DNA from: Candidatus Palauibacter sp.
Lineage (GTDB): Bacteria > Gemmatimonadota > Gemmatimonadetes > Palauibacterales > Palauibacteraceae
Length of the DNA stretch: 64,000 nt
Direction: 5' to 3' (one strand)
Assembly (NCBI RefSeq): GCF_965221685.1
Contig: NZ_OZ244907.1
Part shown: in pieces, positions 11,171 to 35,533 of the stretch
Position numbering within the stretch: position 1 is the stretch's first letter
Layout of the letters: every line of letters begins with the position of its first letter
The notes under the pieces: generated by a model
What the model was told of the DNA's origin: nothing
What the model saw: the letters and a program-made list of their open reading frames with translations, nothing else
The model's database searches: none
Position numbers and translations under genes: made by a program

Positions 11171-11589
11171 TCGTCACGCCGGACGCGTCGGTTCTTCTAA
11201 AATGGGTTCTTCCGGGCGACGACGAGCAGGACACGGACGCGGCGCTCGCGCTGCGTGACGAGGCGGTGGCGGGAACCCTCGATCTGGTCGTTCCTCAACT
11301 CTGGATTCACGAGGTGGGAAACACGCTGGCGAGGCGGTTCCCCGATGACGCCGACGCGCTACTGGCATCCCTGGCCGACTTCGGCCTGGCGGAGGCGCGG
11401 CTCGACTCAAACTGGAGACGGCGCGCCGTGTCTCTGGCCGTAACGTACGGAGTCGCATTCTACGACGCGGCATACCACGCCGTGGCGCTCGGCCTTGGGG
11501 GTGTGTTCGTGACGGCAGACGAGCGATATGTCCGTCGCGCCTCGAGCGCCGGGGGCATCTCCTCGCTACGGCTCTGGCAAACCCGCTGA
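11167..11589 (+). CDS. vapC: VapC PIN-domain ribonuclease toxin
   Basis: IVTPDASVLLKW (first acidic residue), HEVGN, and C-terminal YDAAYHAVALGLGGVFVTADERY match the PIN catalytic-residue layout. 4-nt overlap with vapB. Confidence 0.75.
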   Translation: MIVTPDASVLLKWVLPGDDEQDTDAALALRDEAVAGTLDLVVPQLWIHEVGNTLARRFPDDADALLASLADFGLAEARLDSNWRRRAVSLAVTYGVAFYDAAYHAVALGLGGVFVTADERYVRRASSAGGISSLRLWQTR

Positions 11590-12708: not shown

Positions 12709-12728
12709 TGGCCGCCGGCGCGGTTCCC

Positions 12729-13862: not shown

Positions 13863-14016
13863 CATGGCCGAACGCAGTCCCAGGAGGTTCCCGTGTTGGG
13901 GCTGCATCCATCGTAAACGCCGGTTCGCCGCCATGTAAAGGCACGCGCGAGACCGGAGGCTAGCGGGGCGCCTCGATGCCGATCTCGGGTGCGGCGGCGG
14001 CGAAGTGGCGGACGTT

Positions 14017-14391
14017 CTAGGTGATGATCGTCGAGGCGCGGGCCTTCAGCGCGCATGCCGCGATGAGCATGTCGTACGTCTGTCCGCCGATCACTCTTCT
14101 TCGCTGCGCTCTGCGTAGCGCGCGCCAGGTTTCGGCCGCCGTAAGGTGGATGGTGGGAGTTTCGCCCCAGTTCGCCTCGAGCAGTGCGATGGCGTCCCCG
14201 GATCGCAGTCGATGAGGTCCTGGTAGCCGGGTGAGGACCGCATACGTCTCCGCCAGCGAATGAGCGGCAAGCACAAGCTCTTCGCCGGTCCGCTCGCGTC
14301 GCGCGAGTTCGGCACGGGTTCTCGCGTGGTGTTCGTGCCAGGAGCAGACGGTCGCGACCAGGGCGCTTGTGTCGCAGAGGTAACGGGTCAA
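14017..14391 (-). CDS. vapC: VapC PIN-domain toxin, C-terminally truncated by an in-frame TAG (see findings)
   Basis: LCDTSALV...YDMLIAACALKARASTIIT then TAG at 14017-14019. Reading on in frame gives NVRHFAAAAPEIGIEAPR before the next TAG at 13963-13965, which is the normal VapC C-terminus. Confidence 0.6.
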   Translation of the reverse strand: MTRYLCDTSALVATVCSWHEHHARTRAELARRERTGEELVLAAHSLAETYAVLTRLPGPHRLRSGDAIALLEANWGETPTIHLTAAETWRALRRAQRRRVIGGQTYDMLIAACALKARASTIIT

Positions 14392-14633
14392 GAGCGGAGG
14401 TCGGCCGTCGTCTCCTCGACCTCCGCCGCCGTCAACACCGGACGGCCCTCGCGCGGCACCGCGACCACGGCAGCGCCACGCCGTTCGAGTGAGACGTCCA
14501 GCGGTACCGGCTCAATCTCGACGCGGCCGTCCCGAACCCGGAACCGGACGCGGGTTCCGGGACGCAGCCGGCTCGCTTCCCGAACCGCCTTGGGCACAAC
14601 CAAGCGGCCGGCCTTATCGATGGTAGTTTCCAT
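14388..14633 (-). CDS. AbrB/MazE/SpoVT-family antitoxin paired with the VapC at 14017-14391
   Basis: METTIDKAGRLVVPKAVREASRL is a swapped-hairpin AbrB/SpoVT motif. 4-nt overlap with the downstream toxin. Start trimmed to the Met at 14633. Confidence 0.6.
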   Translation of the reverse strand: METTIDKAGRLVVPKAVREASRLRPGTRVRFRVRDGRVEIEPVPLDVSLERRGAAVVAVPREGRPVLTAAEVEETTADLRS

Positions 14634-14813
14634 GGTAATAATCATGCCACGTCAGGTGCCATCGATCAAGATCTCAAGGCCCGGGCTGCGCCTTCAGCCG
14701 AGTACCCGAGGCGTAATTCCGGAACTCTCACTGCGACGCGCCACTATACTATGGTCACTGCGCCTTGAGCCGGGCGCCGACACGGGACCGCATGCGGAAG
14801 GTGGGCCGACGCC

Positions 14814-15728
14814 ATGCTCGAGATCCGGAACCTCGTCAAGGTCTATCCCGGGCCCGTCGCGGCCCTGCAGGGCGTGTCGCTCGATGTGCCCAAGGGGATG
14901 TTCGGGCTCCTTGGCCCCAACGGGGCGGGGAAAACGACCCTCATGCGCATCGTGGCCGGCCTCCTCGAGCCGACCTCCGGCACCGTCCACTTCGGTGGCG
15001 AGGACATCGTCGCCGACCCGCGCCGAATCCGGCGGCAACTCGGCTATCTGCCGCAGGACTTTGGCTTCTATCCCCACCTCACGGGCGAGTCGATGCTCCG
15101 CTTCCTGCTCCTGCTCAAGGGGGTGGAGGCGCCGCAGGGGGTGAAGCGGCTCGCCGCTGAACTGCTCGACCGCGTGAACCTCTCCCACGCCGCGAAGCGC
15201 AAAGTGAAGGGTTACTCGGGCGGCATGCGGCAGCGGCTGGGGATCGCGCAGGCGCTGGCGGGCGACCCCCGGATCCTGATCGTCGATGAGCCCACGGCGG
15301 GCCTGGACCCGGAGGAGCGGCTCCGCTTCTACCGCCTGCTCGCGGAACTCGCCGAGGACCGCACCGTCCTCCTCTCCACGCACATCGTGGATGACATCTC
15401 CGTGCTCTGCCCCCGCGTCGCGATCATGTACGATGGCCGCTTCGTGGCGAACACGACCCCCGCCGAGGCCCGGGGCCGCCTCGCGGGCGAGATCTACCAG
15501 GGCGCCGTGGAGAAGAAGGACCTCGCCTCGGTCGACCGCGAGTACCGGGTCACGCAGGCGATCCTCATCGAGGGCCGCAACCAGGTTCGCATCCACCTCC
15601 CGGAGGGTGCGCCGCCCGAGGGCTTCGAGGCGGCCGAACCCACGCTGGAGGATGCGTACCTGCTCCTCGCTCAGGCGAATGGCGCCCAGCCCGACCGCGT
15701 GGCAGCCGACGGCGAGGCCGCCTCTTGA
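14814..15728 (+). CDS. ABC transporter ATP-binding protein
   Basis: Walker A GPNGAGKTT, signature YSGGMRQRLGIAQAL, Walker B ILIVDEPTAGLD. Confidence 0.9.
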   Translation: MLEIRNLVKVYPGPVAALQGVSLDVPKGMFGLLGPNGAGKTTLMRIVAGLLEPTSGTVHFGGEDIVADPRRIRRQLGYLPQDFGFYPHLTGESMLRFLLLLKGVEAPQGVKRLAAELLDRVNLSHAAKRKVKGYSGGMRQRLGIAQALAGDPRILIVDEPTAGLDPEERLRFYRLLAELAEDRTVLLSTHIVDDISVLCPRVAIMYDGRFVANTTPAEARGRLAGEIYQGAVEKKDLASVDREYRVTQAILIEGRNQVRIHLPEGAPPEGFEAAEPTLEDAYLLLAQANGAQPDRVAADGEAAS

Positions 15729-18700
15729 ACAGCTTTGCGCGGTCGTGGGAGGTCACTCGAAGGGAGTTCCGCGCGGGGTTCCGGCGGCCGGCCACCTGGG
15801 TGCTGGTCGTGGTCCTGGCCTGGCTGGCGTTGGCCGCGGCTTCGGGCGGCTTCCGCATTTCCACGGGCGCTGGCGGGATCGGCGGCGAGCGGGCCTTCAT
15901 CACCTCGGTCTACACGCAGAGCATGGTCCAGGGCATGGTCATGCTCGCGGTCGCGGCCTGGTTCCTGTCCATCTCGTGCGGGATGGTCGTGATTCGGGAC
16001 CTCGAACTGCAGGTGTCGGAACTCTTCCACTCGACCCGGCTCACGCCGCGGGAGTACGCGTGGGGCAAGTTCTGCGGGGCGGTCGGCGTCTTCGCGGTCG
16101 CGTGGCTCGTCTTCCTGGTGTTCCTGATCTTCTTCGCACACTTCGTGAGGGACCTCGCCGGATCCCGCCTCATCGGCCCCTTCTCCGCCTGGAACTACCT
16201 CTTCCCGACGCTCCTCTTCGGGGTGCCGCAGATGCTCCTCTTCGGAGGCGTCGCCTTCTTCCTCGGCACGTGGACGCGCCGTCCGATCATCGTCTTCGTC
16301 TTTCCTCTGGCGGCGACCCTCGTCACGCTGACCTTCCTGATCGACTGGTCGCCCTCCTGGCTCGCTCCGGAGGTCACCCGGCGGCTCATGCTCATCGACC
16401 CCTCGGGGTATCGCTGGCTGGACGAGACCTTCCTCACGGTCGACCGGGGCGTGGCGTTCTACAACACGCAGCCGCTGCGGCCCGACGCGGGGTTCGTCAT
16501 CAGCCGGGTGGTCGTCGCCCTGCTGGGACTCGGAGCCGTGGCGGTCGCGGCACGCAGCTACGCCCGAAGGATGCTGGCTGGCGGCTGGGAGCCCCGCCTC
16601 CTGAGCGGACTGCGGCGCAGAAAGACCCGGGGCGCCGCCACCGACGCCCCTACGGGGACCGCCATCGACGCCGCCCCCCTGCCGACCCCGCGCCGGGTGG
16701 CCGCGACGACCACCCTCGCCAGCCTCGGGATGAGGACCCGGCCCCTCGGTTTCTGGCGGAGCGCCGGCGTCATCGCGCGCGGCGAGATCCGGGACCTCGT
16801 GGTGCGGCCGGGGATGTATCTCTTCGTCCCCCTCATCCTGTTCATGGCGTTCGAGACATCGGTCGGGATCGGTCCCCTCGATTCCCGCCTTCTGCACACG
16901 CCGGGCGAGATGGCGGAGGGCCAGTACAACACGCTGAACACTTTCCTCTGCTTCCTGCTCCTCTTCTACACCGTCGAGTCGCTCCACAGGGAACGCAGCA
17001 GCCGCCTGCACGAGATCTTCGGCGCGATGCCGGTCGGCACCGGAGCCGTCCTCCTCGGGAAGACGCTGGGGAACAGCGTGATGGCGAGCTTCATCCTGCT
17101 CGTGACGCTCGTCGCCGACGCGGCCTTTCTCCTCTACGAGCGGTTCATCGGCGGGAGCCCGGTGGAGTTCGACCTCTTCCCCTTCGTGGCCGTGTGGGGG
17201 GTCGTGCTCGTCCCCACATTCATCTTCTGGACGGCGTTGATCACCGCCCTTTTCTCCCTCCTCCGAAGCCGGTACGCGGTGTACGGACTCGGGGTCGGTC
17301 TCGTGATCTTCACGGTGTACAGACTGCAGGTGGGCGCGGGGGTGACCTGGGTGTACAACTGGCTCGGCTGGGGCGTGGTGTACTGGAGCGACATGGGCAC
17401 CTTCACCCTGCATGGCACGCCGCTGCTGCTCAACCGGCTCCTCTACCTGAGCCTGGTGCCGCTCCTCGTCGTACTCTCGGTGAAGTGGTACGGCCGGCAG
17501 GACTTCGACGCGGCCGGGATCATCCACCGCCTCCGTCCGAAACCGCTGCTCCTCGGCGCCGCGCGGCTGCTGCCGCTGGGCGTCCCCGCAATCGTCCTCG
17601 CCGCGATCCTCGCCGTCGGGGGCGCGCGGGGCTACCAGGGAGATGCGGCGGACAGGTGGACGAAGGCCTACTGGCGGCAGAACTCCGAGACCTGGAGAGA
17701 CTTCCGCATGCCGTCGGTCTCGCGCGTCGAGGTCGATCTCGACTTCGAGCCGAGCGAGCGTTCGGTGGCCGTGAAGGGGGAATACACCTTTTCCAACCAC
17801 CGTGACCATGCGTACGACCGATTCCCGCTCACGACGGGCCCGTGGGCTCCGATCACCTGGACGCTGGGCGGGGAACCGTACGAACCCGAGGACCGCTCGA
17901 ACCTGTTCATCTTCACCCCGCGCACACCGCTGGAGCCCGGGGACACGCTCACGGTCGGCTTCGAGTACGACTTCGTGTTCATGGAGGGGATGAGCCGGGG
18001 TCCCGGCGAGGCGCTGGAGTTCATCCTTGAATCGGGGATCGTGCTCACCTCCTTCGGGCCGAACTTCGTCCCGGTGCCGGGCTATCTGTCGGGGATCGGC
18101 GTGGACGGGGACAACTCGGCCGAACCCCGCGAGGTCCCGGACGACTTCCACGCAGGCGAGACGGAGCCGTTGTTCGGCTGGGGCGGCGGGGGCTTCGCCG
18201 TGCGTACCCGCATCACGACCCCCGAGGCGTACACGGCCAACGGCGTCGGCCGACTCGTGAGCAGCGAGGTCGCCGGCGGCCGCCGCACCGTGGTTTGGGA
18301 GACGGACCATCCCGTGCGGCTGTTCAACGTCATCGCCGGCAAGTACGCGGTGATCGAGGGGGACGGCACCGCGATCTACTATCACCCGGAGCACGACTAC
18401 AACGTCGAGGAGATGTCCGCCGCGCTCGACGCCGCGCTCAGATACTACTCCGAGTGGTTCCATCCCTTCCCGTGGGATTTGCTCAAGATCTCCGAGTTCC
18501 CCCATCAGATGGGTGCCCAGGGCTTTCCCACGAACATTTCGTTCGGCGAAGGGATCGGGTTCCTGACGAGGAGCGACCCGCGTTCGCACGCGGCGTTCGC
18601 GGTCGTCGCGCACGAAGCCGCGCACCAGTGGTGGGGGAGTTTCCTCATGCCCGGCGACGGCCCCGGCGGCAACATCCTCTCCGAGGGCATGGCCCACTAC

Positions 18701-19441
18701 GCGACGATGCTCCTGCACGAGCAGGTGTACGGCGACCGCTACCGCATGGAGTTCGGCAAGCGGATCGAATCGCAGTACGGCATGGCCCGCTTCGTGGACT
18801 CGGAGCGTCCGCTCGTGAGGACGGACGGGACCCGCCGCGGCGATGGCACTGTCACCTACGATAAGAGCTCGTGGGTGATGTGGATGCTCCAGCGGGAAAT
18901 GGGCCGCGAGAACCTGCTCGCCGGCTTGCGCGCCTTCATCGCGAAGTACAACGCTGACCCGGACTTCCCGGTTCTCCTGGACATGCTCCCGGTGCTGCGC
19001 GGCTTCGCCCCGGACTCGGCGAGATTCGGCTCATTCGTCCACCAGTGGTTCGAGGACGTCGTCGTGCCGGAATACCGGCTCTCGGGTGTAACGAAGACCT
19101 CCGAGCCGGGCGACGCGGCGGAGGCCGGGGCTTCCGGCGTCGGGGAGGCGGGTGCCGCTGACACGTGGGTCGTGCGCGGAACGATCGAGAACGTGGGTAC
19201 GAGCTACATGACCGTGGAAGTGGCGGCGACTACGGGCGATCGCTGGTCCGACGAGGGGGACGACGCCGAGCGGTCGGTCGTGGCCGAGGGATACCGCGAC
19301 GCGCGCACGACGGTGGCCCTGGGCCATGGGCAATCGATCGAGTTCGAGATCCGCGCCCCGTTCGACCCCGACCGGGTTCTGGTCGACCCGGACGTGCTCG
19401 TCCTCCAACTGAATCGGGACGCCGCCGTCTTCGACTTCTGA
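15725..19441 (+). CDS. ABC-2-type permease fused to an M1-family (aminopeptidase N-like) zinc metallopeptidase domain
   Basis: N-terminal about 600 aa hold multiple hydrophobic TM segments. C-terminal HEAAHQWWG...x18...E (HExxH-18-E gluzincin motif) and an M1-like GAMEN-region context. ATGA start overlaps the ATPase stop. Confidence 0.8.
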   Translation: MNSFARSWEVTRREFRAGFRRPATWVLVVVLAWLALAAASGGFRISTGAGGIGGERAFITSVYTQSMVQGMVMLAVAAWFLSISCGMVVIRDLELQVSELFHSTRLTPREYAWGKFCGAVGVFAVAWLVFLVFLIFFAHFVRDLAGSRLIGPFSAWNYLFPTLLFGVPQMLLFGGVAFFLGTWTRRPIIVFVFPLAATLVTLTFLIDWSPSWLAPEVTRRLMLIDPSGYRWLDETFLTVDRGVAFYNTQPLRPDAGFVISRVVVALLGLGAVAVAARSYARRMLAGGWEPRLLSGLRRRKTRGAATDAPTGTAIDAAPLPTPRRVAATTTLASLGMRTRPLGFWRSAGVIARGEIRDLVVRPGMYLFVPLILFMAFETSVGIGPLDSRLLHTPGEMAEGQYNTLNTFLCFLLLFYTVESLHRERSSRLHEIFGAMPVGTGAVLLGKTLGNSVMASFILLVTLVADAAFLLYERFIGGSPVEFDLFPFVAVWGVVLVPTFIFWTALITALFSLLRSRYAVYGLGVGLVIFTVYRLQVGAGVTWVYNWLGWGVVYWSDMGTFTLHGTPLLLNRLLYLSLVPLLVVLSVKWYGRQDFDAAGIIHRLRPKPLLLGAARLLPLGVPAIVLAAILAVGGARGYQGDAADRWTKAYWRQNSETWRDFRMPSVSRVEVDLDFEPSERSVAVKGEYTFSNHRDHAYDRFPLTTGPWAPITWTLGGEPYEPEDRSNLFIFTPRTPLEPGDTLTVGFEYDFVFMEGMSRGPGEALEFILESGIVLTSFGPNFVPVPGYLSGIGVDGDNSAEPREVPDDFHAGETEPLFGWGGGGFAVRTRITTPEAYTANGVGRLVSSEVAGGRRTVVWETDHPVRLFNVIAGKYAVIEGDGTAIYYHPEHDYNVEEMSAALDAALRYYSEWFHPFPWDLLKISEFPHQMGAQGFPTNISFGEGIGFLTRSDPRSHAAFAVVAHEAAHQWWGSFLMPGDGPGGNILSEGMAHYATMLLHEQVYGDRYRMEFGKRIESQYGMARFVDSERPLVRTDGTRRGDGTVTYDKSSWVMWMLQREMGRENLLAGLRAFIAKYNADPDFPVLLDMLPVLRGFAPDSARFGSFVHQWFEDVVVPEYRLSGVTKTSEPGDAAEAGASGVGEAGAADTWVVRGTIENVGTSYMTVEVAATTGDRWSDEGDDAERSVVAEGYRDARTTVALGHGQSIEFEIRAPFDPDRVLVDPDVLVLQLNRDAAVFDF

Positions 19442-19464
19442 GCCGGCCCGTCCGTTCACGCTGC

Positions 19465-19575
19465 CGGCGGGCTGCAAGCCGTCAGTTGACAGACGACGCT
19501 CTACCGTCGAGCCCTACAGGTTCGAGGACGGCTTTCCCTCTACACCGCCATGCGGCGGTTCGGAAGCTCCTGAGC
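19465..19575 (+). repeat. Degenerate copy of sequence found at 24287-24360 plus 24955-24995 (a HigB 3' remnant fused to the 3' end of a HicB-like gene)
   Basis: gcaagccgtcagttgacagacgacgctctaccgtcgagccctacaggttcgaggacggc parallels gcaagttgtcacttgacaggcgacgctccaccgtcgagcccttcagcttcgaggacggc. ctacaccgccatgcggcggttcggaagctcctga parallels ctacactgccatgcgacggttcggaagctcctga (encodes LYTAMRRFGSS*). Confidence 0.55.
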
Positions 19576-19657
19576 AGGACGCAACTTTCCGTCGTCCTTC
19601 GGTTGTCGACCTGTTGTCGAATGAACCGATGCAGGTCAACCAGATGGAGGTCTGTAC

Positions 19658-20356
19658 GTGCAAGCGGAAATGCAGCAGGTGAAACGGACGATCCGTTGGC
19701 TGCAGGGCTACGCCGTCCTGGCCAGCATTGCACTCGTCGTGCTGTTCGTCAGGAATGGGTCCGCGGAGGAGGATGTCCTGCGGGCGCGAGGGTTGATCAT
19801 CGAGGACGCGGCCGGCCGTGAACGGATCCTCCTCGGGGCGCCGATTCCCGAGGCGGTGAACCGCGTTCGCACCGATACGGCTCGACTGCGCGAGTTGTGG
19901 GGGGCGCAGCATCCGGACATAGAAGCGTACATGGACTCCTACGAGGAATATAACCATGGGACCAACGGGCTGGTGATCCTCAACGAGGACGGTTTTGACC
20001 GGCTTGTCCTCGGCGAAGAAACCCCCGACCCACACGTAGGCAAACGTATCGCGCCGTCCTCAGGTCTGGTGGTCCATGATCGCATCGGATTCGAACGGGG
20101 AGGGTTTGGCGTGCTTAGCCGCGAGGACAGCGATTACGTCGCTTTGGGCCTCGATTCAAGTCGCGGCGAGGCCATTTCCCTGATCGCGTTCGACGCAGGC
20201 ATGATCGGTGCCTACCTGAACGACGGGGGAGATTTCATGTTTCTCGGTAAGGGACCTGAGGGCTCCATGCCATACCACGACGAACCGTTCCTTGGTCTGA
20301 CGTTTTGGCGCGATGGAGAGGTCATTCACGATCTGAATGTCGACGAGGGCAACTGA
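19658..20356 (+). CDS. Paralog 1 of an uncharacterised 232-aa N-terminally membrane-anchored protein family
   Basis: MQAEMQQVKRTIRWLQGYAVLASIALVVLFV (TM anchor), then conserved LRARGLIIED..GRERIL.GAP.PEA.NRVRTD core shared with 20544..21242 and 22851..23549. Confidence 0.6.
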   Translation: MQAEMQQVKRTIRWLQGYAVLASIALVVLFVRNGSAEEDVLRARGLIIEDAAGRERILLGAPIPEAVNRVRTDTARLRELWGAQHPDIEAYMDSYEEYNHGTNGLVILNEDGFDRLVLGEETPDPHVGKRIAPSSGLVVHDRIGFERGGFGVLSREDSDYVALGLDSSRGEAISLIAFDAGMIGAYLNDGGDFMFLGKGPEGSMPYHDEPFLGLTFWRDGEVIHDLNVDEGN

Positions 20357-20543
20357 GTTCGCCGACCCGATCCCAAGAGCCGCTTGCAACTCTCCCCTGA
20401 CGTTCCGCTGTCGAAAGCGTGTCGGCAGCCTGGGGTCCGGTCCGAGGTCCCCTCGAGACGGAGCGTCGCGCACCACATCGACTTCTTCCGCCGCGGCGTA
20501 GACTCGTCCGTGTTGCCAGATACCATCGTTAAGGAGGATTCAG

Positions 20544-21242
20544 GTGACTACGGGCGCCGAACGATTGACGCGGACGATTCGTTGGCTCCAGGTCTACGCT
20601 GCATTGCTGACTATCGCAGTGGCCGTGCTCTTCGTAAGGAGCGGGACGGCTACGGACGGTGTGCTCAGAGCACGGGGGCTGATCATCGAGGACGAGGTCG
20701 GGCGCGAGAGGATTCTCATCGGCGCGCCCGTCCCCGAGGCTACCAACCGCGTACGGACTGATGAGGCTCGCGTGCGGGAGGTCTGGGCACCCCAGTTTCC
20801 CGAGGCCTACATGGATTACTACCAGGACTACAGCCACGACACCAACGGGATGCTGATCCTCAGCGAGGACGGATTCGATCGCCTCGTCGTCGGGGATCCC
20901 ACGCCCGATCCGAACATCGGCAGGCGCATCGCGCCGAGTACGGGCATGGTGATCAACGACACCGAAGGATTCGAGCGGATGGGGTACGGCGTGAAGCCCA
21001 TGGACGGCCGCTATCGCGTCAGTCTGGGCCTCGACACGGATCGCATCGAAGAGGGTCTCATATTGATGCTGGACGATGGTGGCCCACGCGGCGTTCTAGT
21101 GGGCACCGCGGGGGACAGGATCTTTCTCGGTAGCGCGCCCGCGGGACACGGGTGGACCGGCCTTGCAGAGGAATTCCAGGGACTCCTGGTCCGGCGAGAT
21201 GGCGAGACGGTGTACCAACTGAATCTGGCGGCCGGCAACTGA
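20544..21242 (+). CDS. Paralog 2 of the 232-aa membrane-anchored family
   Basis: About 85% aa identity to paralog 3, with long identical nucleotide runs (for example gggctgatcatcgaggacgaggtcgggcgcgagaggattctcatcggcgc in both). AAGGAGGA RBS. Confidence 0.65.
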   Translation: MTTGAERLTRTIRWLQVYAALLTIAVAVLFVRSGTATDGVLRARGLIIEDEVGRERILIGAPVPEATNRVRTDEARVREVWAPQFPEAYMDYYQDYSHDTNGMLILSEDGFDRLVVGDPTPDPNIGRRIAPSTGMVINDTEGFERMGYGVKPMDGRYRVSLGLDTDRIEEGLILMLDDGGPRGVLVGTAGDRIFLGSAPAGHGWTGLAEEFQGLLVRRDGETVYQLNLAAGN

Positions 21243-21419
21243 CGCGGTCTGACTGACCGGCCAAGGCATACCTCGACGACATCCTCGCTGCGGGCGCATC
21301 CGTTCACTTCTCCCGCGTCGCACTTGGACTCGAGGACGGATAGCGCAGTCGGGCAACCCTGATGTTAGTGGAAACGGTCCTATCCGTGGTCGAGTCCAAA
21401 CTCCACGCGAGGGACTGCA

Positions 21420-22757
21420 ATGAACGCCAGCCAGCCCGCCCGGATCCGCTCGTTGCTGCTCGTGGTCGCCATGGTCGCGGCCCCCGCTCTCCAGGCTCAG
21501 GAAGTGATCGAAATCCCGGCGCGGGACAGTCGGATCGACGTCGAGTTCGAGGAGGTCTACCGCGTCGGCGTCCTCGAAGGCGAGGACTGGGAGATGTTCG
21601 CCCGGGTTGCCAGGGTGGCGTTCGACGCGGCGGGGAATCTGTACGTGTTCGACGAGACTCCCGGCTCAACTCGTTCCGGGGAGGTACGGGTCCTGGTGTT
21701 CGACGCCGCGGGACGCTTCCTGCGCGAGTTCGGTTCTCCTGGCGGCGGGCCTGGCGAGTTCAACCGCCCCGTGGACTTCGCGGTGCTCCGGGACGGAACC
21801 GTGGTGGTGAGCGACGCCGGCCACAGCGGCTATCAGCTGTTTGACCGTTCCGGCAGCTTCGAGCGCATGGTCCGAGCCGGCGGCGAGCCCGGCGACCGGC
21901 CGGCGTTGGGGCAGAGCCTTCGGGCCGATCCTCGCGGCGACGCCGTCTTCGCTTTCGCCGGGGGTCGGCTCGGCGTCATGACCCACAGTCTGGTGGAAGG
22001 ACTCCGCAGCCTCATGGGGGGAGGTTCAACGGTCCAGCCGATGTCGCGCCCGGTCGTGCGGATTGGACTCGACGGCGAGGCCGTCCGCGCGGACACCGTG
22101 GTCACGGGCTGGCTGCCCCTGGGAGGCGATCCGGATGACCGGGTACCGGATGGCGCCCCCGCCCAGGTGCGAGAAATACTGGGAGGCATGACGGGGCCCA
22201 CGGTCTTCGAGCCCCCGCTCCTCGTGGGCGTCCTCCCGGATGGCGGCATCGTTCATTCGGATTCTTCCGCGTACGCATTGAAGGTGACGCCGCCCGGCGC
22301 GCGGCAGGTCTCGCGAATCATCCGGCGGCCGTTTGTGCCCGAGCCTGTGACGCCCGCGATCGAGAGGGAGTACCAACGACGCGCCGCCAACGCCCGCGGG
22401 GGACTCGGCGCAGGGCTCAGGATGCTGGAATTCCGCCAGCGAGGGGGCGGAAACAGACCGGCGGCGACGACCAACGTCGAGTTGGAAACGACGTACTACC
22501 ACGAACTCTCGGTGCTCCGCGGTCTCCGTACTACATGGAATAGCCGCATCTGGGTGCAACGCCGGGGAGACGAGCCGAACAGCGACGGATCCATTGATGT
22601 CCTGACGGCCGACGGGGAGTACGTGGGCACCTACGCGACCGGCGCGACGGCGTTGCCCGACGCCTTCGGTCCGGATGGGATGGCCGCGTTCATCGAGTTC
22701 GACGAATTGGACGTGGCCCGCGTGGTCGTGAGGAGGCTGCCGTCCGAGGTTCGGTGA
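21420..22757 (+). CDS. Secreted NHL-repeat/six-bladed beta-propeller-like protein
   Basis: Signal peptide [16 protein letters not shown]. Repeated [10 protein letters not shown] / [18 protein letters not shown] strand motifs are typical of NHL/YVTN propellers. The domain call is tentative. Confidence 0.5.
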
Positions 22758-22850
22758 CATGTCGACTTGTCCGGCCGGGCCCCGCGAGTCCGCATGACAT
22801 GTACGTCAACCCGATGAACCGATGCAGGTCAACCAGATGGAGGTGTCTAC

Positions 22851-23549
22851 GTGCAAGCGGAAATGCAGCAGGTGATGCGGACGATCCGTTGGCTGCAGGG
22901 CTACGCCATCCTGGCCAGCATCGCCCTCGTCGTGCTGTTCGTCAGGAATGGGGTGGAGGAGGAGGATGTCCTGCGGGCGCGAGGGCTGATCATCGAGGAT
23001 GAGGTCGGGCGCGAGAGGATTCTCATCGGCGCTCCGGTCCCCGAGGCCGCGAACCGCGTTCGGACCGATGACGCTCGCGTGCGGGAGGTCTGGGCACCCC
23101 GGTTTCCCGAGGCGTACATGGACTACTACCAGGACTACAGCCACGACACCAACGGGATGTTGATCCTCAGCGAGGACGGATTCGATCGCCTCGTCGTCGG
23201 GGATCCCACGCCCGATCCGAACATAGGCAGGCGTATCGCGCCGGCTACCGGCATGGTGATCAACGACGACCAGGGGTTCGAGCGCTCCGGGTACGGCGTA
23301 TTGGCCGTGAATGGGGGCTATAACGTCGGTTTGGGCCTCGACACGGATCGTATCGCAGAGGGGCTCAGCCTGGTCCTGCAGGATGATGGCCCTCACGGCA
23401 TTCTGGTCGGCACGCCGGCGGACGGGATCTTTCTTGGCACCGCGCCCGCCGGACACGCCTGGACGGGCCTTGAGGAGGAATTTTCGGGGCTGCTGGCCCG
23501 GCGAGATGGCGAGATCGTGCACCAACTGAATCTCGCGGCCGGCAATTGA
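22851..23549 (+). CDS. Paralog 3 of the 232-aa membrane-anchored family (mosaic: leader and N-terminus like paralog 1, core like paralog 2)
   Basis: 5' leader gaaccgatgcaggtcaaccagatggaggt... and first about 35 codons are near-identical to paralog 1. The remainder is near-identical to paralog 2. Confidence 0.65.
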   Translation: MQAEMQQVMRTIRWLQGYAILASIALVVLFVRNGVEEEDVLRARGLIIEDEVGRERILIGAPVPEAANRVRTDDARVREVWAPRFPEAYMDYYQDYSHDTNGMLILSEDGFDRLVVGDPTPDPNIGRRIAPATGMVINDDQGFERSGYGVLAVNGGYNVGLGLDTDRIAEGLSLVLQDDGPHGILVGTPADGIFLGTAPAGHAWTGLEEEFSGLLARRDGEIVHQLNLAAGN

Positions 23550-23619
23550 GGCGGTCTGACTCACCGGCCAGCCCGTGAGCCTGCATGATGTTGTACGTCA
23601 ACCCGAAACACGGATGCCG

Positions 23620-23883
23620 CACATGCCGAACCAGCTCGTCCAGGCCCGCATCGACACAGCCGTGAAGGAGGGGGCGGCCACGGTGCTGGCGGCCATGGGC
23701 CTGACCGCCTCCGACGCCTTGCGCCTCCTTCTGATCAAGGTCGCCCAGGAGAAAGCGCTGCCGTTCGCGCCGCTGGTTCCCAACGCCGCCACGATTGAAG
23801 CGATGAGAGAGGCCCGCCGGGGCGACCTCCGGCAGGCGGCCAGCGTAGAGGACCTCTTCAACGATCTGCGCGCGGACGATTGA
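23620..23883 (+). CDS. RelB/DinJ-family antitoxin (apparently orphan)
   Basis: MPNQLVQARIDTAVKEGAATVLAAMGLTASDALRLLLIKVAQEKALPF matches DinJ. C-terminal PNAATIEAMREARRGDL...EDLF matches the DinJ tail. No RelE/YafQ ORF follows. Confidence 0.65.
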   Translation, partial: HMPNQLVQARIDTAVKEGAATVLAAMGLTASDALRLLLIKVAQEKALPFAPLVPNAATIEAMREARRGDLRQAASVEDLFNDLRADD

Positions 23884-23902
23884 GCGGACCAGGCGCGTCG
23901 GC

Positions 23903-24223
23903 TTACTGGTCGTCGGCCCCTTCGAGCTCCGCGAACAGCTCTTCCGCGCTTGCGAATCGAGCCGTTCCCTGCCTCATCATCTCCTCGCTCTCGGCCATGG
24001 CTCTACGGGTCTCAGCGTTCGGCACCTTGAGAGTGCTGCGGGCCGCCTGACGCGCGGTCGTCGTTTCGCCCTCGACGTCGGTGACGGGGTGCAACTCTCC
24101 CCGGTTGAACTTCTCCAGGATCTCCCGTTCTTCCCGGTCCAACTGATCGTTCACGGCGATTGCCTCCTCTGACGTTCCCGCGTCGCGTTCATCCGCATCT
24201 CCTTGATCTGGATCGTGATACAC
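23903..24223 (-). CDS. Putative antitoxin-like addiction-module component (acidic; DinJ-type C-terminal segment)
   Basis: LDREEREILEKFNRGELHPVTDVEGE resembles addiction-module antidote components. C-terminal VPNAETRRAMAESEEMMRQG...EELFAELE parallels the DinJ tail of the adjacent gene. No toxin partner seen. Confidence 0.35.
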   Translation of the reverse strand: MYHDPDQGDADERDAGTSEEAIAVNDQLDREEREILEKFNRGELHPVTDVEGETTTARQAARSTLKVPNAETRRAMAESEEMMRQGTARFASAEELFAELEGADDQ

Positions 24224-24286
24224 CGTGTTGGGCGGTTGTTTCCCCGTAGGCCAGGCCCCACTTGGACGCCAAACCGTCCGTTCGCG

Positions 24287-24394
24287 CCGGCGGCAGCCTG
24301 CAAGTTGTCACTTGACAGGCGACGCTCCACCGTCGAGCCCTTCAGCTTCGAGGACGGCACGGCGGCCGATGTGGACTACGTGGACTACCACTGA
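24287..24394 (+). pseudogene. Remnant of a HigB (RelE-like killer protein) toxin gene: only the C-terminal about 20 codons retained
   Basis: ...TVEPFSFEDGTAADVDYVDYH* matches the conserved HigB_toxin C-terminus (...FRWEDGDAYDVEIVDYH). Upstream part of the ORF (24203..) has no HigB similarity. Sits immediately 5' of the higA gene. Confidence 0.45.
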
Positions 24395-24409
24395 AGGGGA
24401 GGACCGACC

Positions 24410-24697
24410 ATGGCCATGCACGACCCGCCGCATCCGGGCGGCATCGTGAGGCGGCAGTGCCTTGAACCGTTGGGTCTGACCGTGACGCGGGCGGCGGAGG
24501 GCCTGGGCGTCACTCGGCAGGCGCTTTCGGAGTTGTTGAACGGGCATACCGGAGTGTCGGTCGAGATGGCGATCCGGCTGTCGAAGGCCTTCGGCTCGAC
24601 GCCCGAGACGTGGCTGGGGATGCAGATAGCGTACGATCTCTGGCAGGCGCGCGGTCACGCCCGGGAGATGACGGTGGAACGCTTTGCGGCGATCTGA
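24410..24697 (+). CDS. higA: HigA-family antitoxin (XRE-type HTH)
   Basis: HPGGIVRRQCLEPLGLTVTRAAEGLGVTRQALSELLNGHTGVSVEMAIRLSKAFGSTPETWLGMQ is the canonical HigA HTH region. Confidence 0.7.
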   Translation: MAMHDPPHPGGIVRRQCLEPLGLTVTRAAEGLGVTRQALSELLNGHTGVSVEMAIRLSKAFGSTPETWLGMQIAYDLWQARGHAREMTVERFAAI

Positions 24698-24709
24698 GGA
24701 GGATTCCTG

Positions 24710-24994
24710 ATGCGATACGCTTACCCGTGCGAACTGACGCCCGAGAAGAACGGTGGCTACTCGGTGTCCTTCCCGAATGTGCCGGAGGCGTTGACGTGCG
24801 GCGACGACCGGGACGAGGCCCTGGCGATGGCCGAGGACGCTCTGACCGTGGCGCTCGGCTCGTACATGCGGTGTCGCGAGGACATCCCGGTGCCAGACTC
24901 CGTGGCGGACCAGCAGGAGGTGGTCGCGGTTCCGCGGGTGGTTGCGGCGAAGCTCGCGCTCTACACTGCCATGCGACGGTTCGGAAGCTCCTGA
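24710..24994 (+). CDS. HicB-like (UPF0150) antitoxin-fold protein
   Basis: MRYAYPCELTPEKNGGYSVSFPNVPEALTCGDDRDEALAMAEDAL matches the HicB N-terminal RNase-H-like fold consensus (YPVILEKDEDGGYVVTFPDLPGCITQGDTLEEAL). Confidence 0.55.
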   Translation: MRYAYPCELTPEKNGGYSVSFPNVPEALTCGDDRDEALAMAEDALTVALGSYMRCREDIPVPDSVADQQEVVAVPRVVAAKLALYTAMRRFGSS

Positions 24995-25028
24995 ACCTGA
25001 ATCACCTCACGCATCGAGTCGAAGGGCC

Positions 25029-25229
25029 ATGAGCATCAAGGCGGAATACCGGGATGGAGTCTTCGCGCCCCTGCATGAGGTCGAGGAGCCCACGGCCGGA
25101 GAGGTCTACGAAGTCTTCTCCGAGGGCGAACTAAAACGGCTCGCGGCGAACCTTCCGTGGCTGAAAGACTCGGAGCGCAGCTTCGAGTTCTGGGAGAACG
25201 AGGAGGATGCCGTCTACGATAGCCTATAG
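25029..25229 (+). CDS. DUF104-type small antitoxin-like protein
   Basis: MSIKAEYRDGVFAPLHEVEEPTAGEVYEV matches the DUF104 pattern (M.I.A.YENGVLKPLE.LDL.EGE.V.V). GAAGGG RBS. Start trimmed from 24942. Confidence 0.45.
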   Translation: MSIKAEYRDGVFAPLHEVEEPTAGEVYEVFSEGELKRLAANLPWLKDSERSFEFWENEEDAVYDSL

Positions 25230-25286
25230 GCGGGACGACATCGTTCTCGTTTCCTTCCCCTTCACCGATCTCAAGGTGCCGCTGTT

Positions 25287-25601
25287 TCATGCTCCGCAGT
25301 TCCGCGCGAACCACTCGACGCCTTCGTCGCGAATATGCTCCAGCAGCGTTCTGTCGCGAACCGAGTCGTACAGGATCAGATCGACCGACTGCGCCATCGG
25401 AATCTCTTCGACCGCTGCGGCGAGACGCGCCTGGTCCGTCAACGTCAGCCGGTCACCGAACCGCGCGATGTCCACGTCGGAGGTTGTGGTGTTCGTCCCG
25501 GTCGCCCTGGATCCGAACAGGACGGCTCGTTCCACGCGGCCATTGGCCGCGATCACGGCGATGATCGCCTCGCGGTGCGCGTCCTTGAGGCCATCCGTCA
25601 T
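25287..25601 (-). CDS. Minimal nucleotidyltransferase (MNT; HI0073-like) of a HEPN/MNT toxin-antitoxin pair
   Basis: LFGSRATGTNTTTSDVDIA carries the GSx9-13DxD polymerase-beta-type NTase motif. 4-nt overlap with the upstream HEPN gene. Confidence 0.7.
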   Translation of the reverse strand: MTDGLKDAHREAIIAVIAANGRVERAVLFGSRATGTNTTTSDVDIARFGDRLTLTDQARLAAAVEEIPMAQSVDLILYDSVRDRTLLEHIRDEGVEWFARNCGA

Positions 25602-26011
25602 GGCGATCGCTTGGCGTCCAGAGTCCAGTAGAGCCGCAGCAGGACGGGGTGGTAGCGTTCCTTGATCAGCGCTTCCGCCTCCTCGGCCACATCGAGCACG
25701 TAGGCGTGGCTCAAGAGGTTGCGCTTGTCCAGCGCGTCGAGCAGGGTCTCGCAGTCGCTCTCCCCGATGTAGCCCGCCTCGAAGCTGTTGCGAATCGCCG
25801 CGCGCGGGACCTTCACGTCATGACCGTCATAGAAGAGGAGGTCCTTGAGCACCTTCCAGGACAGCTCGAAGCTGAACTCGAACGTCTTGATCAGCCCAGC
25901 CAGTTCCAGGTAGTCACACCGTTCCCTGTCGCAGGCTTTCGTGAGTTGCGCGAGCACCGTTCCGAAAGTGTCGAGCCGCTGCTGCCAGCGCCGTTCATCC
26001 GAACTGCTCAT
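25598..26011 (-). CDS. HEPN-domain protein (HI0074 / nucleotidyltransferase-substrate-binding family)
   Basis: Conserved Rx4-6H motif RNLLSHAY near the C-terminus. WQQRLDTF...ELAGLIKTFEF pattern of the HI0074 family. Start taken at the second Met (alternative 26047). Confidence 0.65.
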   Translation of the reverse strand: MSSSDERRWQQRLDTFGTVLAQLTKACDRERCDYLELAGLIKTFEFSFELSWKVLKDLLFYDGHDVKVPRAAIRNSFEAGYIGESDCETLLDALDKRNLLSHAYVLDVAEEAEALIKERYHPVLLRLYWTLDAKRSP

Positions 26012-26185
26012 CCTTCCCCGCCTCCGAATCCCGAGGCCGGACGTCATCGTTCGTCATCGCTGTAGGGCAACTCCGGGAGCCGGAGTCGTGAGATAGAATA
26101 AGCCATGTGTCCCACCGCCGTATACCTTGCCGGAGCAGGGGTGCCCAGAGTTGACCGATCGGGCCAGAGTAGCCATTGAGTCCAC

Positions 26186-26437
26186 ATGCGAGAAATCACG
26201 GCCGGAGAGGCGAAGGACCGGTTCGACCAACTGCTTCGGTCCGCCCAGCAGGGGCCCGTGCGGGTCACGCAGAACGGCACGCCGGTGGGCGTGATGCTGT
26301 CGGTGGAGCAGTTCGAACGACTGCTCGGAACTGCCCGGGACCGGTTGGCGGCCACGATGGACGCCATGAGCCGGGAGGCAGCCGCCAACGACCTGACGCC
26401 AGCGGCGCTGGAGTCCCTGCTCTCCGATGAAGGCTGA
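26186..26437 (+). CDS. Phd/YefM-family antitoxin (apparently orphan)
   Basis: MREITAGEAKDRFDQLLRSAQQGPVRVTQNGTPVGVMLSVEQFERL matches the Phd/YefM N-terminal fold. No Doc/YoeB ORF downstream. Confidence 0.7.
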   Translation: MREITAGEAKDRFDQLLRSAQQGPVRVTQNGTPVGVMLSVEQFERLLGTARDRLAATMDAMSREAAANDLTPAALESLLSDEG

Positions 26438-26445
26438 CAGGGTCG

Positions 26446-26676
26446 TTACGCTCCGCTGCGGGCGACAGCTGCGTCGGCGGCTTCGGCCACGGAGCGGTAG
26501 CCGTCCCATTGCCGATGCGCGGCCTCGTCCTCGGGGTTCGCGTCGGAAGGCACGAGATACCAGCGGTCGGCCCGGTCGGATTCCCCGTCCATGAAGTGAC
26601 CGCGCACGAGGCGATACCCGGCCATCTCGGCCCGGAACCTATGGGCGCGGATGATGACGTTTGGATCAAACCTCAT
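26446..26676 (-). CDS. Small hypothetical protein, third gene of the RelE-like/XRE operon
   Basis: MRFDPNVIIRAHRFRAEMAGYRLVRGHFMDGESDRADRWYLVPSDANPEDEAAHRQWDGYRSV. Start overlaps the stop of the XRE gene by 4 nt (26673-26676). No recognisable family. Confidence 0.35.
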   Translation of the reverse strand: MRFDPNVIIRAHRFRAEMAGYRLVRGHFMDGESDRADRWYLVPSDANPEDEAAHRQWDGYRSVAEAADAAVARSGA

Positions 26677-26957
26677 GGCGATGGCACCAGTGCATGCCTC
26701 ACTGCGTTGGGATCGTGCTTGATGATGCGCAGAAGAGCTACCGCCGGGCCGCTGACACGTCGTCTCCCCTGCTCCCACTTTCGGTAGCCGGACAGACTCA
26801 TTCCCATCAGGGCCGCCATTTGAATCTGCGTCAGCTTCGCCTCCATCCGAACCTCGCGGGGGGAGATCGGGGCGTGAACGATGGCGGGACCCTCCCCCTT
26901 GGCATGGTCCAAGGCCTCGTTCAAGGACTGGATCAGGTCTTCTCCGAACGTACTCAT
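26673..26957 (-). CDS. XRE-family HTH antitoxin (HigA-2-like) partner of the RelE-family toxin
   Basis: EDLIQSLNEALDHAKGE...KLTQIQMAALMGMSLSGYRKWEQGRRRVSGPAVALLRIIKHDPNAV matches the antitoxin family that pairs with HigB-2/RelE-like toxins. Confidence 0.65.
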   Translation of the reverse strand: MSTFGEDLIQSLNEALDHAKGEGPAIVHAPISPREVRMEAKLTQIQMAALMGMSLSGYRKWEQGRRRVSGPAVALLRIIKHDPNAVRHALVPSP

Positions 26958-27295
26958 TCCCTCCCCCGCTTTCCTTGAAGTTTGATGGCGGCTACGAGCG
27001 CAGCCACCGCTCGGCGCTCGCCAGGGTTCAGATCGGTCTTGCCGGACTTCGAGTAGGCGAGAAGCGCGTAGATTGGCATTTCCTCGCCCCCGAAGAAATA
27101 AACTACGCGGACACCACCCCGCTTACCGCGCCCGGAGGCTCCGAATCGCATCTTTCGGACCCCGCCGGTGCCGGGAATCTCGGACCCCGCCAAGGGGTGA
27201 TCGGCCAAGTAGTCGATCAGTTCGCGTCTCTCGTCCTCGTTGAACAGCTTGTCGGCCTGGCGGGAGAAGGTTGGAGTTTCGGCAACGGTCTGCAT
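26954..27295 (-). CDS. RelE/ParE-superfamily toxin (HigB-2-like)
   Basis: IPGTGGVRKMRFGASGRGKRGGVRVVYFFGGEEMPIYALLAYSKSGKTDL is the signature core of this toxin family. Start set at Met 27295 (the ORF-track start 27502 adds an Arg/Pro-rich, unlikely extension). Confidence 0.65.
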   Translation of the reverse strand: MQTVAETPTFSRQADKLFNEDERRELIDYLADHPLAGSEIPGTGGVRKMRFGASGRGKRGGVRVVYFFGGEEMPIYALLAYSKSGKTDLNPGERRAVAALVAAIKLQGKRGRE

Positions 27296-27888: not shown

Positions 27889-28260
27889 ACTTGGGCGCAG
27901 TTGCGCGGTCCGTCCGGCGGGCCTGCGTGGCACCCGAGGCAGCGTGAGACCCGGTCTCGGTGAGGCCGCGCGTCACGTGAAGCTACTTCGCAAGGTGTGG
28001 CGGATCGACGAGGGGGCCGGCACGACCTTTTTCATGGACGGCAAGGAGGTGTACTATTGATCACGCACGGTGACCGCTGAGCCCCAGCCGAGACGGACTC
28101 AGCGGCGCTGAAGGATCATGATGTCGGATGAGGGAGGGGGTGGTGATGGTCCGCTTTCGTTCAACTCGCCGTAGCTCCGAATCCGGGGCGACGCCTTTTG
28201 TATTCCCACGAGGGCCCTCGCTCGACCGATTCTCAACAGCCTATGAGATGATACCTACAT

Positions 28261-29787
28261 ATGTCTGACATCCCAGCAAACTCCATCCCGGCCCTGAAGG
28301 TCAACCAATGGCTATCCCACTGGGATGACATCAGTTGGAAACCGGAAGAACACCGATCAAAGCCGCCGCGGTCGTTCTATCAGTTCAACGTTTCCGCTCA
28401 CGTGCTGCGTCGCCTTAGTGGAGTCTATAGGAGAACCACCGACCGAGATCGCGGGACTTCCGATCTGGGCATTCAGCGCCGCCACGAGCCCAAACGATCC
28501 GAGGAAATCGCTCGGTTCGTCAAGTACGGATATCCCTGGTCGGTTCTCAGTGCGACTAAGCGTCAACAACCTGACTTCGCAGACTTGCGCCAACCCGGTT
28601 GGCTTCCGACAGCAATCCTCATCAACATTCTCACCGCTGACGATGAACGCCAGGGTAATGGCGTCGCAAAGGGCGATCTCGTTGAGATCCGCGAAGATGG
28701 CGATATGCACCACGTCGTTCTCCCCCACGGCCTAGATTCAGGGGACTGGGAATACAAGACCGTACCACCAATTGAAGTAATCGACGGACAGCACCGGCTT
28801 TGGGCGTTCGATGACACCGCTCTCAATGGCAGTTTTGAGCTACCTGTTGTTGCGTTCTTTGGCTTAGATCGGAGTTGGCAGGCATACCTGTTCTACACAA
28901 TCAACATAAAGCCAAAGAAGATAAATCCGAGTCTGGCTTTCGACCTCTACCCTTTGCTGCGTACTGCGACTTGGCTCGAGAAACTTGAAGGCCCCAAGGT
29001 GTACCGCGAATCGCGAGCCCAGGAGATTGTAGACATCCTATGGGCTCATCCGGAGAGCCCGTGGTATCGTCGCATCAACATGCTCGGCGAACCCGGGCAC
29101 CGGGGCTTGATGGTGACGCAGGCGGGCTGGATTAGATCTCTCCTGGCGTCCTTTGTGAAGAGGTGGGAAGCGCGCACTGCTCCGGGCGGCCTTTTCGGCA
29201 GTCCAATGGGCAGCCATGAGACGGTTCTCCCGTGGACTCTGGAGCAGCAGGCGGCCTTCCTGATCTTCCTCGGACAGCGGTTGCGTGCGACCGTCGAGGA
29301 GTCCGACGATGAATGGATGTCCGCTCTACGGCAGCGATGGTCTGATCCCGAGGACGAAGGTGATCCAGCGTTCGTTGGGCGCCACAACCTGCTAAATCAA
29401 GACCAGGGCTTACGAGCATTCCTCCAAGTGTCCAACGACGTTTGCTACGTGGCCCCAGAGCACTGGCTACAAGAAGAAGAACTTGTTTCTGTTCCGTCAG
29501 ATCCCGATGAGTCCGATGGCGTGGCCGCCGCCCTGCGACACTTTGAGAAGAACGAGCTGCTTTGCACACACATCGACGAGTTGAGTCAAACTCTCGCGGA
29601 GTTCGACTGGCGATCTTCGGATGCGTCTGACTTGACTCCAGATGAGCATCTGCGGAAGTCCGCTTTTCGGGGCAGCGGTGGATATCGCATGCTTCGCGAG
29701 GAGCTGCTTCGTCACCTCTCCGATGACGAGTCGACTGTCGGGTTGGCTGCCGAGGAGGTTCTCAGAATGCTCGGTGTGGCCGAATGA
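28261..29787 (+). CDS. DGQHR-domain protein (DndB/DpdB-like, ParB/Srx-fold)
   Basis: Exact DGQHR motif in PIEVIDGQHRLWAFDD. 508 aa. Lower-GC gene preceded by an AT-rich intergenic region. First gene of a 3-gene operon (ATGA overlap with the next gene at 29784-29787). Confidence 0.8.
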   Translation: MSDIPANSIPALKVNQWLSHWDDISWKPEEHRSKPPRSFYQFNVSAHVLRRLSGVYRRTTDRDRGTSDLGIQRRHEPKRSEEIARFVKYGYPWSVLSATKRQQPDFADLRQPGWLPTAILINILTADDERQGNGVAKGDLVEIREDGDMHHVVLPHGLDSGDWEYKTVPPIEVIDGQHRLWAFDDTALNGSFELPVVAFFGLDRSWQAYLFYTINIKPKKINPSLAFDLYPLLRTATWLEKLEGPKVYRESRAQEIVDILWAHPESPWYRRINMLGEPGHRGLMVTQAGWIRSLLASFVKRWEARTAPGGLFGSPMGSHETVLPWTLEQQAAFLIFLGQRLRATVEESDDEWMSALRQRWSDPEDEGDPAFVGRHNLLNQDQGLRAFLQVSNDVCYVAPEHWLQEEELVSVPSDPDESDGVAAALRHFEKNELLCTHIDELSQTLAEFDWRSSDASDLTPDEHLRKSAFRGSGGYRMLREELLRHLSDDESTVGLAAEEVLRMLGVAE

Positions 29788-32233: not shown

Positions 32234-32427
32234 CGTAAGCCGCATGTAGAGTCCCATCGAGGACTCGTTGCCGATCCGGACGGTCGCGCGTCGAGCGCAC
32301 TCCCTTGCCCCTACTTCCTCAAGGTGTAGCGTAGCGTCGTGGAGCTTGCGCGCAGAGTTACTGCCGCTGGCGAGACGGTCTCCCGCCGACCGCATCCCAT
32401 GATTTGTAGGACGAGGAGAGAAGCCTG

Positions 32428-35494: not shown

Positions 35495-35533
35495 CCGCCG
35501 GATGCTTACGGGGCGAGCAGTGAGGCAAGACAC

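Follow-up and report, generated by a model that had tools for sequence, protein, structure and literature searches.

Three paralogous genes at one locus

We analyzed a 64,000-nucleotide (nt) stretch of contig NZ_OZ244907.1 (hereafter the window), which is high-GC DNA from a Gemmatimonadota genome of the Palauibacter/Longimicrobiales group, and focused on three paralogous genes encoding proteins of 232 amino acids (aa) with a predicted membrane anchor. Palauibacterales is a marine order without cultured members (PMC10469786). We found that the third gene is a statistically significant mosaic, copy-1-like at its start and copy-2-like thereafter, and that the family to which all three belong is widespread yet undescribed and structurally distinctive. 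The three genes, and the one interleaved among them, are as follows.

19658-20356, + strand: copy 1, of the c1-type subfamily; 232 aa; GTG start 7 nt past GGAGG
20544-21242, + strand: copy 2, of the c2-type subfamily; 232 aa; GTG start 6 nt past AGGAGG
21420-22757, + strand: secreted 6-bladed beta-propeller (PF17170/NHL); 445 aa; interleaved between copies 2 and 3
22851-23549, + strand: copy 3; 232 aa; c1-type head on a c2-derived (c3-type) body

The preliminary description of this DNA had placed three 232-aa copies at 19658, 20544 and 22851; we recovered exactly these open reading frames (ORFs), and the motifs quoted from them were present. All three were intact, with GTG starts 6-7 nt behind GGAGG. 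The intact frames, the strong Shine-Dalgarno sites and a ratio of nonsynonymous to synonymous divergence (dN/dS) of 0.16-0.35 in every region indicate that the copies are real, functional genes. A tblastn search of the 64-kb window detected no fourth copy. Copy 2 was 100% identical to the database protein P0001, and copies 1 and 3 were identical to P0117 and P0041, respectively, in all 3 regions compared; the c2-type is the most frequent subfamily type in the clade. Protein identity was 56% between copies 1 and 2, 62% between copies 1 and 3 and 78% between copies 2 and 3. The C-terminal thirds diverged most, as had been noted earlier, with 41% aa identity between copies 1 and 2 and 72% between copies 2 and 3. 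GC content at third codon positions (GC3) was 0.72-0.81 in the family copies, copy 1 having 0.72, versus 0.87-0.95 in core genes. Searches for promoters and terminators at the locus returned no sigma-70 promoter and one weak terminator-like site, inside the NHL gene, and there was no real Rfam match in 19000-25000.

Copy 3 is a mosaic

Comparison of copy 3 with the other two copies in sliding windows divided it into the following segments.

22814-22982, + strand: copy-1-like conversion tract; leader, ribosome-binding site, cytoplasmic tail and transmembrane helix, to codon 44
22986-23235, + strand: copy-2-like high-identity core, 92-100% at the nt level; hairpin 1 through hairpin 2 plus its loop

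The first segment was 88-96% identical to copy 1 and 37-72% identical to copy 2 at the nt level, and it began about 37 nt upstream of the copy 3 GTG, in the non-coding leader (22814). It contained the leader that the preliminary description had matched to copy 1. That description had also held that the remainder follows copy 2 nearly nucleotide for nucleotide. This is accurate for 22986-23235 and fails for the last third of the gene, where identity to copy 2 fell to ~78% (range 67-83%) and synonymous divergence (dS) was 0.48.

The formal breakpoint analysis confirmed the mosaic. Among 241 informative sites, copy 1 was favored at 67 of 70 before the breakpoint and copy 2 at 146 of 171 after it. 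The maximum chi-square was 138, with the breakpoint between 22982 and 22986, and none of 10,000 permutations reached this value (largest permuted value 22.7). In the head, dS was 0.10 between copies 1 and 3 versus 1.22 between copies 2 and 3; the corresponding values were 0.91 versus 0.24 in the core and 1.41 versus 0.48 in the C-terminal third. Since synonymous divergence also switches at the breakpoint, purifying selection alone is insufficient to account for the pattern.

Age, recurrence and mode of the exchange

In L001, a relative with 92-98% identical flanking DNA, the copy 3 orthologue carries the same chimera with a breakpoint common to both genes (nt 129-136), and hence the chimera is not specific to one strain. 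A second related locus, L011, has a c3-type gene whose c1-like tract runs from -78 to +200 (breakpoint 200/201) and is 95-100% identical to window copy 1. Window copy 3 and its L001 orthologue have a shorter tract (-37 to +132); the longer and fresher tract of L011 therefore indicates that conversion recurs. Among 100 close homologues we found two head types only. Bodies of the c3-type bore c1-type heads in P0028, P0032, P0035, P0036, P0042 and P0045 and c2-type heads in P0005, P0009, P0017 and P0019, and c1-type bodies often bore c2-type heads (P0098, P0099, P0111, P0113). Every exchange ended in or beside the near-invariant 'LRARGLIIED...' core, the source of the homology used for exchange.

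The dS between window and L001 orthologues was 0.12-0.31 (0.16 for the NHL gene), and that of the exchanged tract was comparable (~0.10-0.11; core 0.24). Paralog dS within a genome equaled paralog dS between the window and L001 genomes. Given these values and the chimera common to L001, no conversion after the split of the two is visible, and the window chimera dates to about that split or earlier. Hence, of the 'recent gene conversion' proposed at the outset, recombination between paralogs stood, and proved recurrent; the word 'recent' calls for qualification.

These data show the evolutionary behavior of the genes directly, and we have high confidence in the account that describes them best. 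Copies 1 and 2 represent two old subfamilies (dS >1), and copy 3 arose from the copy-2 type by a younger duplication. The near-invariant core gives nucleotide identity sufficient for homologous exchange, and through it a 5' module of leader, ribosome-binding site, tail and transmembrane helix has been copied repeatedly, apparently from c1-type to c3-type genes, with tract ends differing between genomes. A weak point of this account is the donor direction, c1 to c3, which the nested tracts suggest and do not prove. We also considered a deletion hybrid, in which copy 3 came from unequal crossing-over of c3 with a downstream c2; this was ruled out because the c3 orthologue of L001 is already chimeric, yet its downstream c2 has been retained. 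A significant breakpoint, low tract dS, nested tracts and a conserved-segment anchor are features shared with the gene conversion seen between bacterial paralogues, tandem or dispersed, in the concerted evolution of duplicated genes. Evidence of programmed or diversity-generating variation is absent: there is no silent cassette array, only two head types occur and purifying selection acts throughout. The conversion behavior is thus a familiar process on a new substrate.

The same mosaics could instead stem from homologous recombination between strains, that is, lateral transfer of alleles in a shared island and not conversion between paralogs of one genome. The L011 head and leader fit this, being 95-100% identical to window copy 1 when the remainder of the L011 gene, like the DNA flanking it, shows just ~90% identity to the window. 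The equality of paralog dS within and between genomes fits it too, as does the nature of the locus, a shuffled island of lower GC3 typical of horizontally exchanged DNA. However, donor-type and recipient-type genes are co-resident in the window genome, at most 3.2 kb apart, and nested tracts that end in a conserved core are the classic picture of paralog conversion. The two processes are mutually compatible; as a replacement for intragenomic conversion, we consider inter-strain exchange unlikely, though deserving some weight.

A widespread family under purifying selection

A database search with copy 2 gave 465 matches, and clustering at 50% gave 681 family representatives, with E <=1e-10 for 317, nearly all 230-250 aa long. 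Members were present in Gemmatimonadota, Acidobacteriota and Bacteroidota, including Winogradskyella tangerina, and about 20 residues were nearly invariant across the three phyla. The three copies had no match in Pfam or NCBIfam at E up to 1. When 85 diverse members were searched against Pfam, NCBIfam and PHROGs, only scattered single matches were obtained (E >=0.0016), and none matched PADLOC. The PDB contained no significant sequence relative (best E 0.9). Searches of phage and plasmid collections by tblastn with a window copy and a Bacteroidota homologue found nothing, and IMG/VR (2.9 million viral contigs) held no family relative. Literature searches returned organism background only.

Purifying selection acts throughout the family. 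Across regions dN/dS was 0.16-0.35, with a median of 0.16 in the core. The pairwise median dN/dS (omega) was 0.31 for residues 136-232 and 0.30 for residues 179-232, with values above 1 in 0 of 186 and 0 of 182 pairs, respectively.

Predicted structure and topology

The final AlphaFold model, built on the copy 2 sequence with a deep alignment, had a predicted local distance difference test score (pLDDT) of 95.1 and a predicted template modeling score of 0.79. A first model from a shallow alignment (52 sequences at >=51% identity) reached a pLDDT of 62 and was discarded. The accepted model predicts a helix at residues 2-32 and hairpins at 45-60, 102-117, 133-153, 156-177, 182-198 and 211-227. 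An internal duplication relates hairpin 1 plus loop to hairpin 2 plus loop (HHalign probability 96.5%, E 8e-10). Between these hairpins lies a two-helix insert (copy 2 residues ~74-97; 74-93 in the model; window 20763-20834) that was present in the Palauibacter branch and some others and absent from many distant members, which run directly from '...R.R.D' to hairpin 2. The family motif is G-h-h-h-x-D-x-x-G-x-x-R-h-x-h-G, followed by proline-rich loops, and conservation declines steadily with distance from the membrane, hairpin 1 having a value of 0.66 and the C-terminal tip 0.23.

No solved structure matched in Foldseek at E <=1e-3. The best match was Borrelia OspA, a single-layer beta-sheet of consecutive hairpins (E 7.6e-3, template modeling score 0.37 over 176 columns, root-mean-square deviation 5.7 A, 10% identity), and this fold likeness is weak; a profile alignment with OspA over residues 146-230 was not significant (E 3.4). 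OspA is a lipoprotein anchored via a lipidated cysteine. Unlike it, the 232-aa copies have no cysteine, and hence no lipobox cysteine, and have a helical anchor. The best fold matches in the viral library were MORN-repeat proteins, including 'YwqK antitoxin' entries, and were likewise weak (E 2e-3 to 1e-1, template modeling score 0.3-0.4). Tandem beta-hairpins are common to our family and MORN-repeat proteins, MORN-variant and YwqK-type proteins included. MORN proteins are typically cytosolic. In contrast, the family has a different motif and an N-terminal membrane helix, and no MORN model was among the listed Pfam matches of the 85 members at E up to 1.

In all three copies there was one hydrophobic segment, ~11-16 residues from the N-terminus, and the remainder was acidic and free of cysteine. 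The single hydrophobic helix, which follows a short basic N-terminal tail, most likely anchors the protein in the inner membrane, its N-terminus facing inward. Behind it, ~190 residues are modeled as six beta-hairpins in succession, an acidic domain devoid of cysteine and most likely periplasmic; hairpins 1 and 2 derive from an ancient internal duplication. We consider the periplasmic location of the hairpin domain probable. Several observations count against so definite a picture: the charges flanking the helix are nearly balanced in the window copies, so that topology is weakly predicted; AxA-like motifs were seen by eye behind the hydrophobic segment in some members, so that the domain might be released and not tethered; and in the model the six hairpins may form either a single-layer sheet or a sandwich.

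Genomic context and possible function

The best overall explanation, to which we assign a probability of roughly 60%, is that the three genes are recombining paralogues of a widespread family whose product is a tethered periplasmic module. Both the observation made in the sequence and the inference of recombination hold up. The finding adds a confidently modeled family that is missing from all four profile libraries consulted and has no relative of solved structure, and it provides a clean case in which an extremely conserved core lets paralogues swap whole 5' modules. Its biological importance is modest and uncertain until the function is tested experimentally; because a member occurs in the cultured W. 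tangerina, such experiments are feasible.

As to function, the protein may be a periplasmic module for binding or scaffolding that is tethered to the membrane. Its conserved base could bind a conserved envelope component and its variable tip could tune a second contact; possible clients are secreted beta-propellers or zinc peptidases, which are often nearby. We put this forward as a tentative proposal. It is weakened by being drawn from architecture alone, by the lack of any partner conserved across genomic contexts, and by the size of the NHL family (>1,770 matches, multi-copy); together with the non-independence of related loci, that size makes adjacency to NHL genes only suggestive and maybe coincidental. 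A stronger version, which we think improbable, is that a new periplasmic domain family of beta-hairpin repeats, spanning at least three diderm phyla, links secreted beta-propellers or zinc peptidases to the inner membrane as a tether or adaptor, with the exchangeable head (leader, cytoplasmic tail, transmembrane helix) as a functional cassette. If that were true, the head would re-assign expression control or membrane partnering among paralogues and would not be a neutral by-product of homology.

The gene between copies 2 and 3 had been described as NHL-like and secreted, and this agreed with our results. Its product matched PF17170 at 28.0 bits (gathering cut-off 22.9), contained one NHL repeat and had a signal-peptide-like N-terminus, and its close homologues carry precomputed PF17170 assignments and the NCBI name '6-bladed beta-propeller'. 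It scored 40.7 bits against the ScyF equivalog, far under the cut-off of 350. The PF17170/NHL identity belongs to this neighbor only and not to the 232-aa family. The adjacent propeller might have the family as its dedicated membrane partner, be it a tether, chaperone or regulator, the two genes forming one module. Of 21 Longimicrobiales loci, 12 had an NHL propeller gene within 6 kb of a family gene; the two were directly adjacent in several, and the NHL gene was interleaved in both the window and L001. In L029 (3542-6714, Gemmatimonadetes), a PQQ propeller gene is followed by a duplicated MacB_PCD/FtsX permease, and a family gene begins 30 nt behind the permease; this was the only operon-like arrangement seen. 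On the other hand, position, distance and orientation all vary, the neighboring NHL genes are only 32-43% identical to that of the window, their family is very large, and no propeller neighbor was seen in L021, L022, L023, L026, L031 or L033. We regard a dedicated pairing with the NHL protein as quite doubtful.

Other contexts were diverse. Distant members adjoin pairs of M16 zinc peptidases in L026 (4326-8741) and L031 (6001-9483), the pair being divergent in one and convergent in the other, and L023 and L033 have ordinary chromosomal gene neighbors. In L022 (W. tangerina, QERF01000008.1, 3022-15276), the homologue lies inside an apparent integrative element with a tyrosine integrase, a primase and HTH_17, beside a TIR-domain gene, an AAA_15/AAA_21 ATPase and a DUF6547 gene. 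In L021 the family gene adjoins McrBC.

The preliminary description had likened the family to variable surface, periplasmic sensor or immunity proteins, and this functional analogy is not supported. With only ~14 cytoplasmic residues, ~11-16 preceding the single hydrophobic segment, and no domain matches, there is no cytoplasmic signaling output domain. No toxin-domain gene was a recurrent neighbor in the window, the 21 related loci or the distant loci sampled. Purifying selection, the absent toxin partner and the absent signaling domain argue against all these roles, which we regard as unlikely. The immunity or defense role, as an orphan immunity protein against periplasm-acting toxins or a membrane protein for phage exclusion, has several points in its favor: it would account for the arrays, for the recombination and for the position in an island, the window genes lie among toxin-antitoxin and restriction-modification genes, the McrBC, TIR and ATPase neighbors of L021 and L022 are in keeping with it, and the weak fold matches include the 'YwqK antitoxin' entries. 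Yet 0 of 85 members matched PADLOC, no C-terminal pair had an omega above 1, the ~20 near-invariant residues extend over three phyla, unlike what fast-evolving immunity or surface proteins show, the phage, plasmid and viral-contig collections contain no family member, and its other contexts are ordinary chromosomal regions. We judge a defense role very unlikely. Finally, although the related genome records are metagenome-assembled, the window genome probably is too, and paralogues are a known cause of misassembly, an artefactual mosaic (an assembly chimera of paralogues or strains, or similarity kept by purifying selection on the core) is largely refuted and hardly credible, because independent assemblies (L001 and the six c3-type proteins with c1-type heads) share the chimera, the synonymous-site pattern switches at the breakpoint and the similarity to copy 1 continues into the non-coding leader.

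Locus dynamics and island content

The family genes lie in an island rich in toxin-antitoxin genes, a hotspot of rearrangement in which modules have been reshuffled between relatives. The features around them are as follows.

14017-14391 and 14388-14645, - strand: PIN toxin and MazE-type antitoxin; backbone marker common to relatives
14673-21318, no strand assigned: 6,646-bp block with ABC ATPase, permease-M1 peptidase, copy 1 and copy 2
14814-15728, + strand: ABC transporter ATPase (PF00005, E 8.7e-33)
15725-19441, + strand: ABC-2 permease fused to an M1 peptidase domain; 1238 aa; PF12698, PF12679, PF01433; directly upstream of copy 1
19448-19586, + strand: toxin-antitoxin gene debris upstream of copy 1
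23575-23883, + strand: RelB antitoxin gene (PF04221, E 4e-19), 25 nt downstream of copy 3
24410-24697, + strand: HTH_3 (HigA-like) antitoxin gene; flank duplicated upstream of copy 1
24710-24994, + strand: HicB-like antitoxin gene; flank duplicated upstream of copy 1
31082-32233: D12 adenine methyltransferase, in the lower-GC stretch
32428-34719: MmeI-type restriction-modification enzyme, in the lower-GC stretch

L001 matched the window over 11060-14672 and then resumed directly at 21319, the block 14673-21318 being absent. Six further related loci likewise had no ABC/M1 block, so that it was absent from every relative examined. These six held the same modules (VapBC-type PIN/MazE, RelB, HTH_3, HicB and family copies) in different orders; in L001 the copy 2 orthologue sits between copy 3 and relB, so that relB there follows the copy 2 orthologue and not copy 3. 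These comparisons illustrate the reshuffling of a toxin-antitoxin island in uncultured marine Palauibacterales. The related loci carried one copy of the family or two in tandem, against three in the window. 'Locally expanded', the wording used beforehand, is thus true in a modest sense. The window gained its third copy with the 6.6-kb block that carries copies 1 and 2. The block junction had no obvious direct repeat, and a metagenome scan for copy 1 orthologues found two distant loci only, with no clue to the origin of the block. The permease-M1 fusion in it, with the M1 metallopeptidase domain C-terminal, is unusual, and the stop of the preceding ABC ATPase overlaps its start. Damaged family copies occurred in some related loci: in L006 (5421-6117) the upstream tandem copy consisted of two overlapping matches, suggesting a frameshift, and in L019 (6001-6897) the C-terminal part (query residues 173-232) lay upstream of the N-terminal part (1-182), suggesting rearrangement between the tandem copies.

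The debris upstream of copy 1 resembles DNA further downstream, 19448-19532 being 86% identical to 24274-24358 and 19538-19573 being 94% identical to 24959-24994, the 3' end of the HicB-like gene. This region is a composite of two segments flanking HTH_3/HicB 5 kb away (24274-24358, 24952-25007), and it looks like an 'empty site' or a decayed copy of the HTH_3/HicB cassette. We considered the 85-nt repeat as an RNA or attC-like element; its folding was unremarkable (z-scores -0.5 to -2.0), and it is therefore read as gene debris. ORF 24203-24391 (63 aa, ending VDYVDYH), which contains 24274-24358 and is a tentative HigB-like candidate, had no Pfam match. The stretch 23575-27000 is dense in toxin-antitoxin components: RelB, HTH_3, HicB-like, a Polbeta nucleotidyltransferase and its substrate-binding partner (an MNT/HEPN-type pair), Phd/YefM and MqsA/HTH_3, several of them apparently without an obvious partner toxin.

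GC content was lower in 28000-38000 (0.585-0.64) than over most of the remaining window (0.66-0.73). This stretch is probably a horizontally acquired defense island; two large ORFs in it, 29784-31085 and 35534-37339, had no Pfam match. Near the end of the window, an ORF of 3165 aa on the - strand (54486-63983) contains cadherin, Big_9, fn3, He_PIG and Big_2 repeats and most likely encodes a huge surface adhesin.

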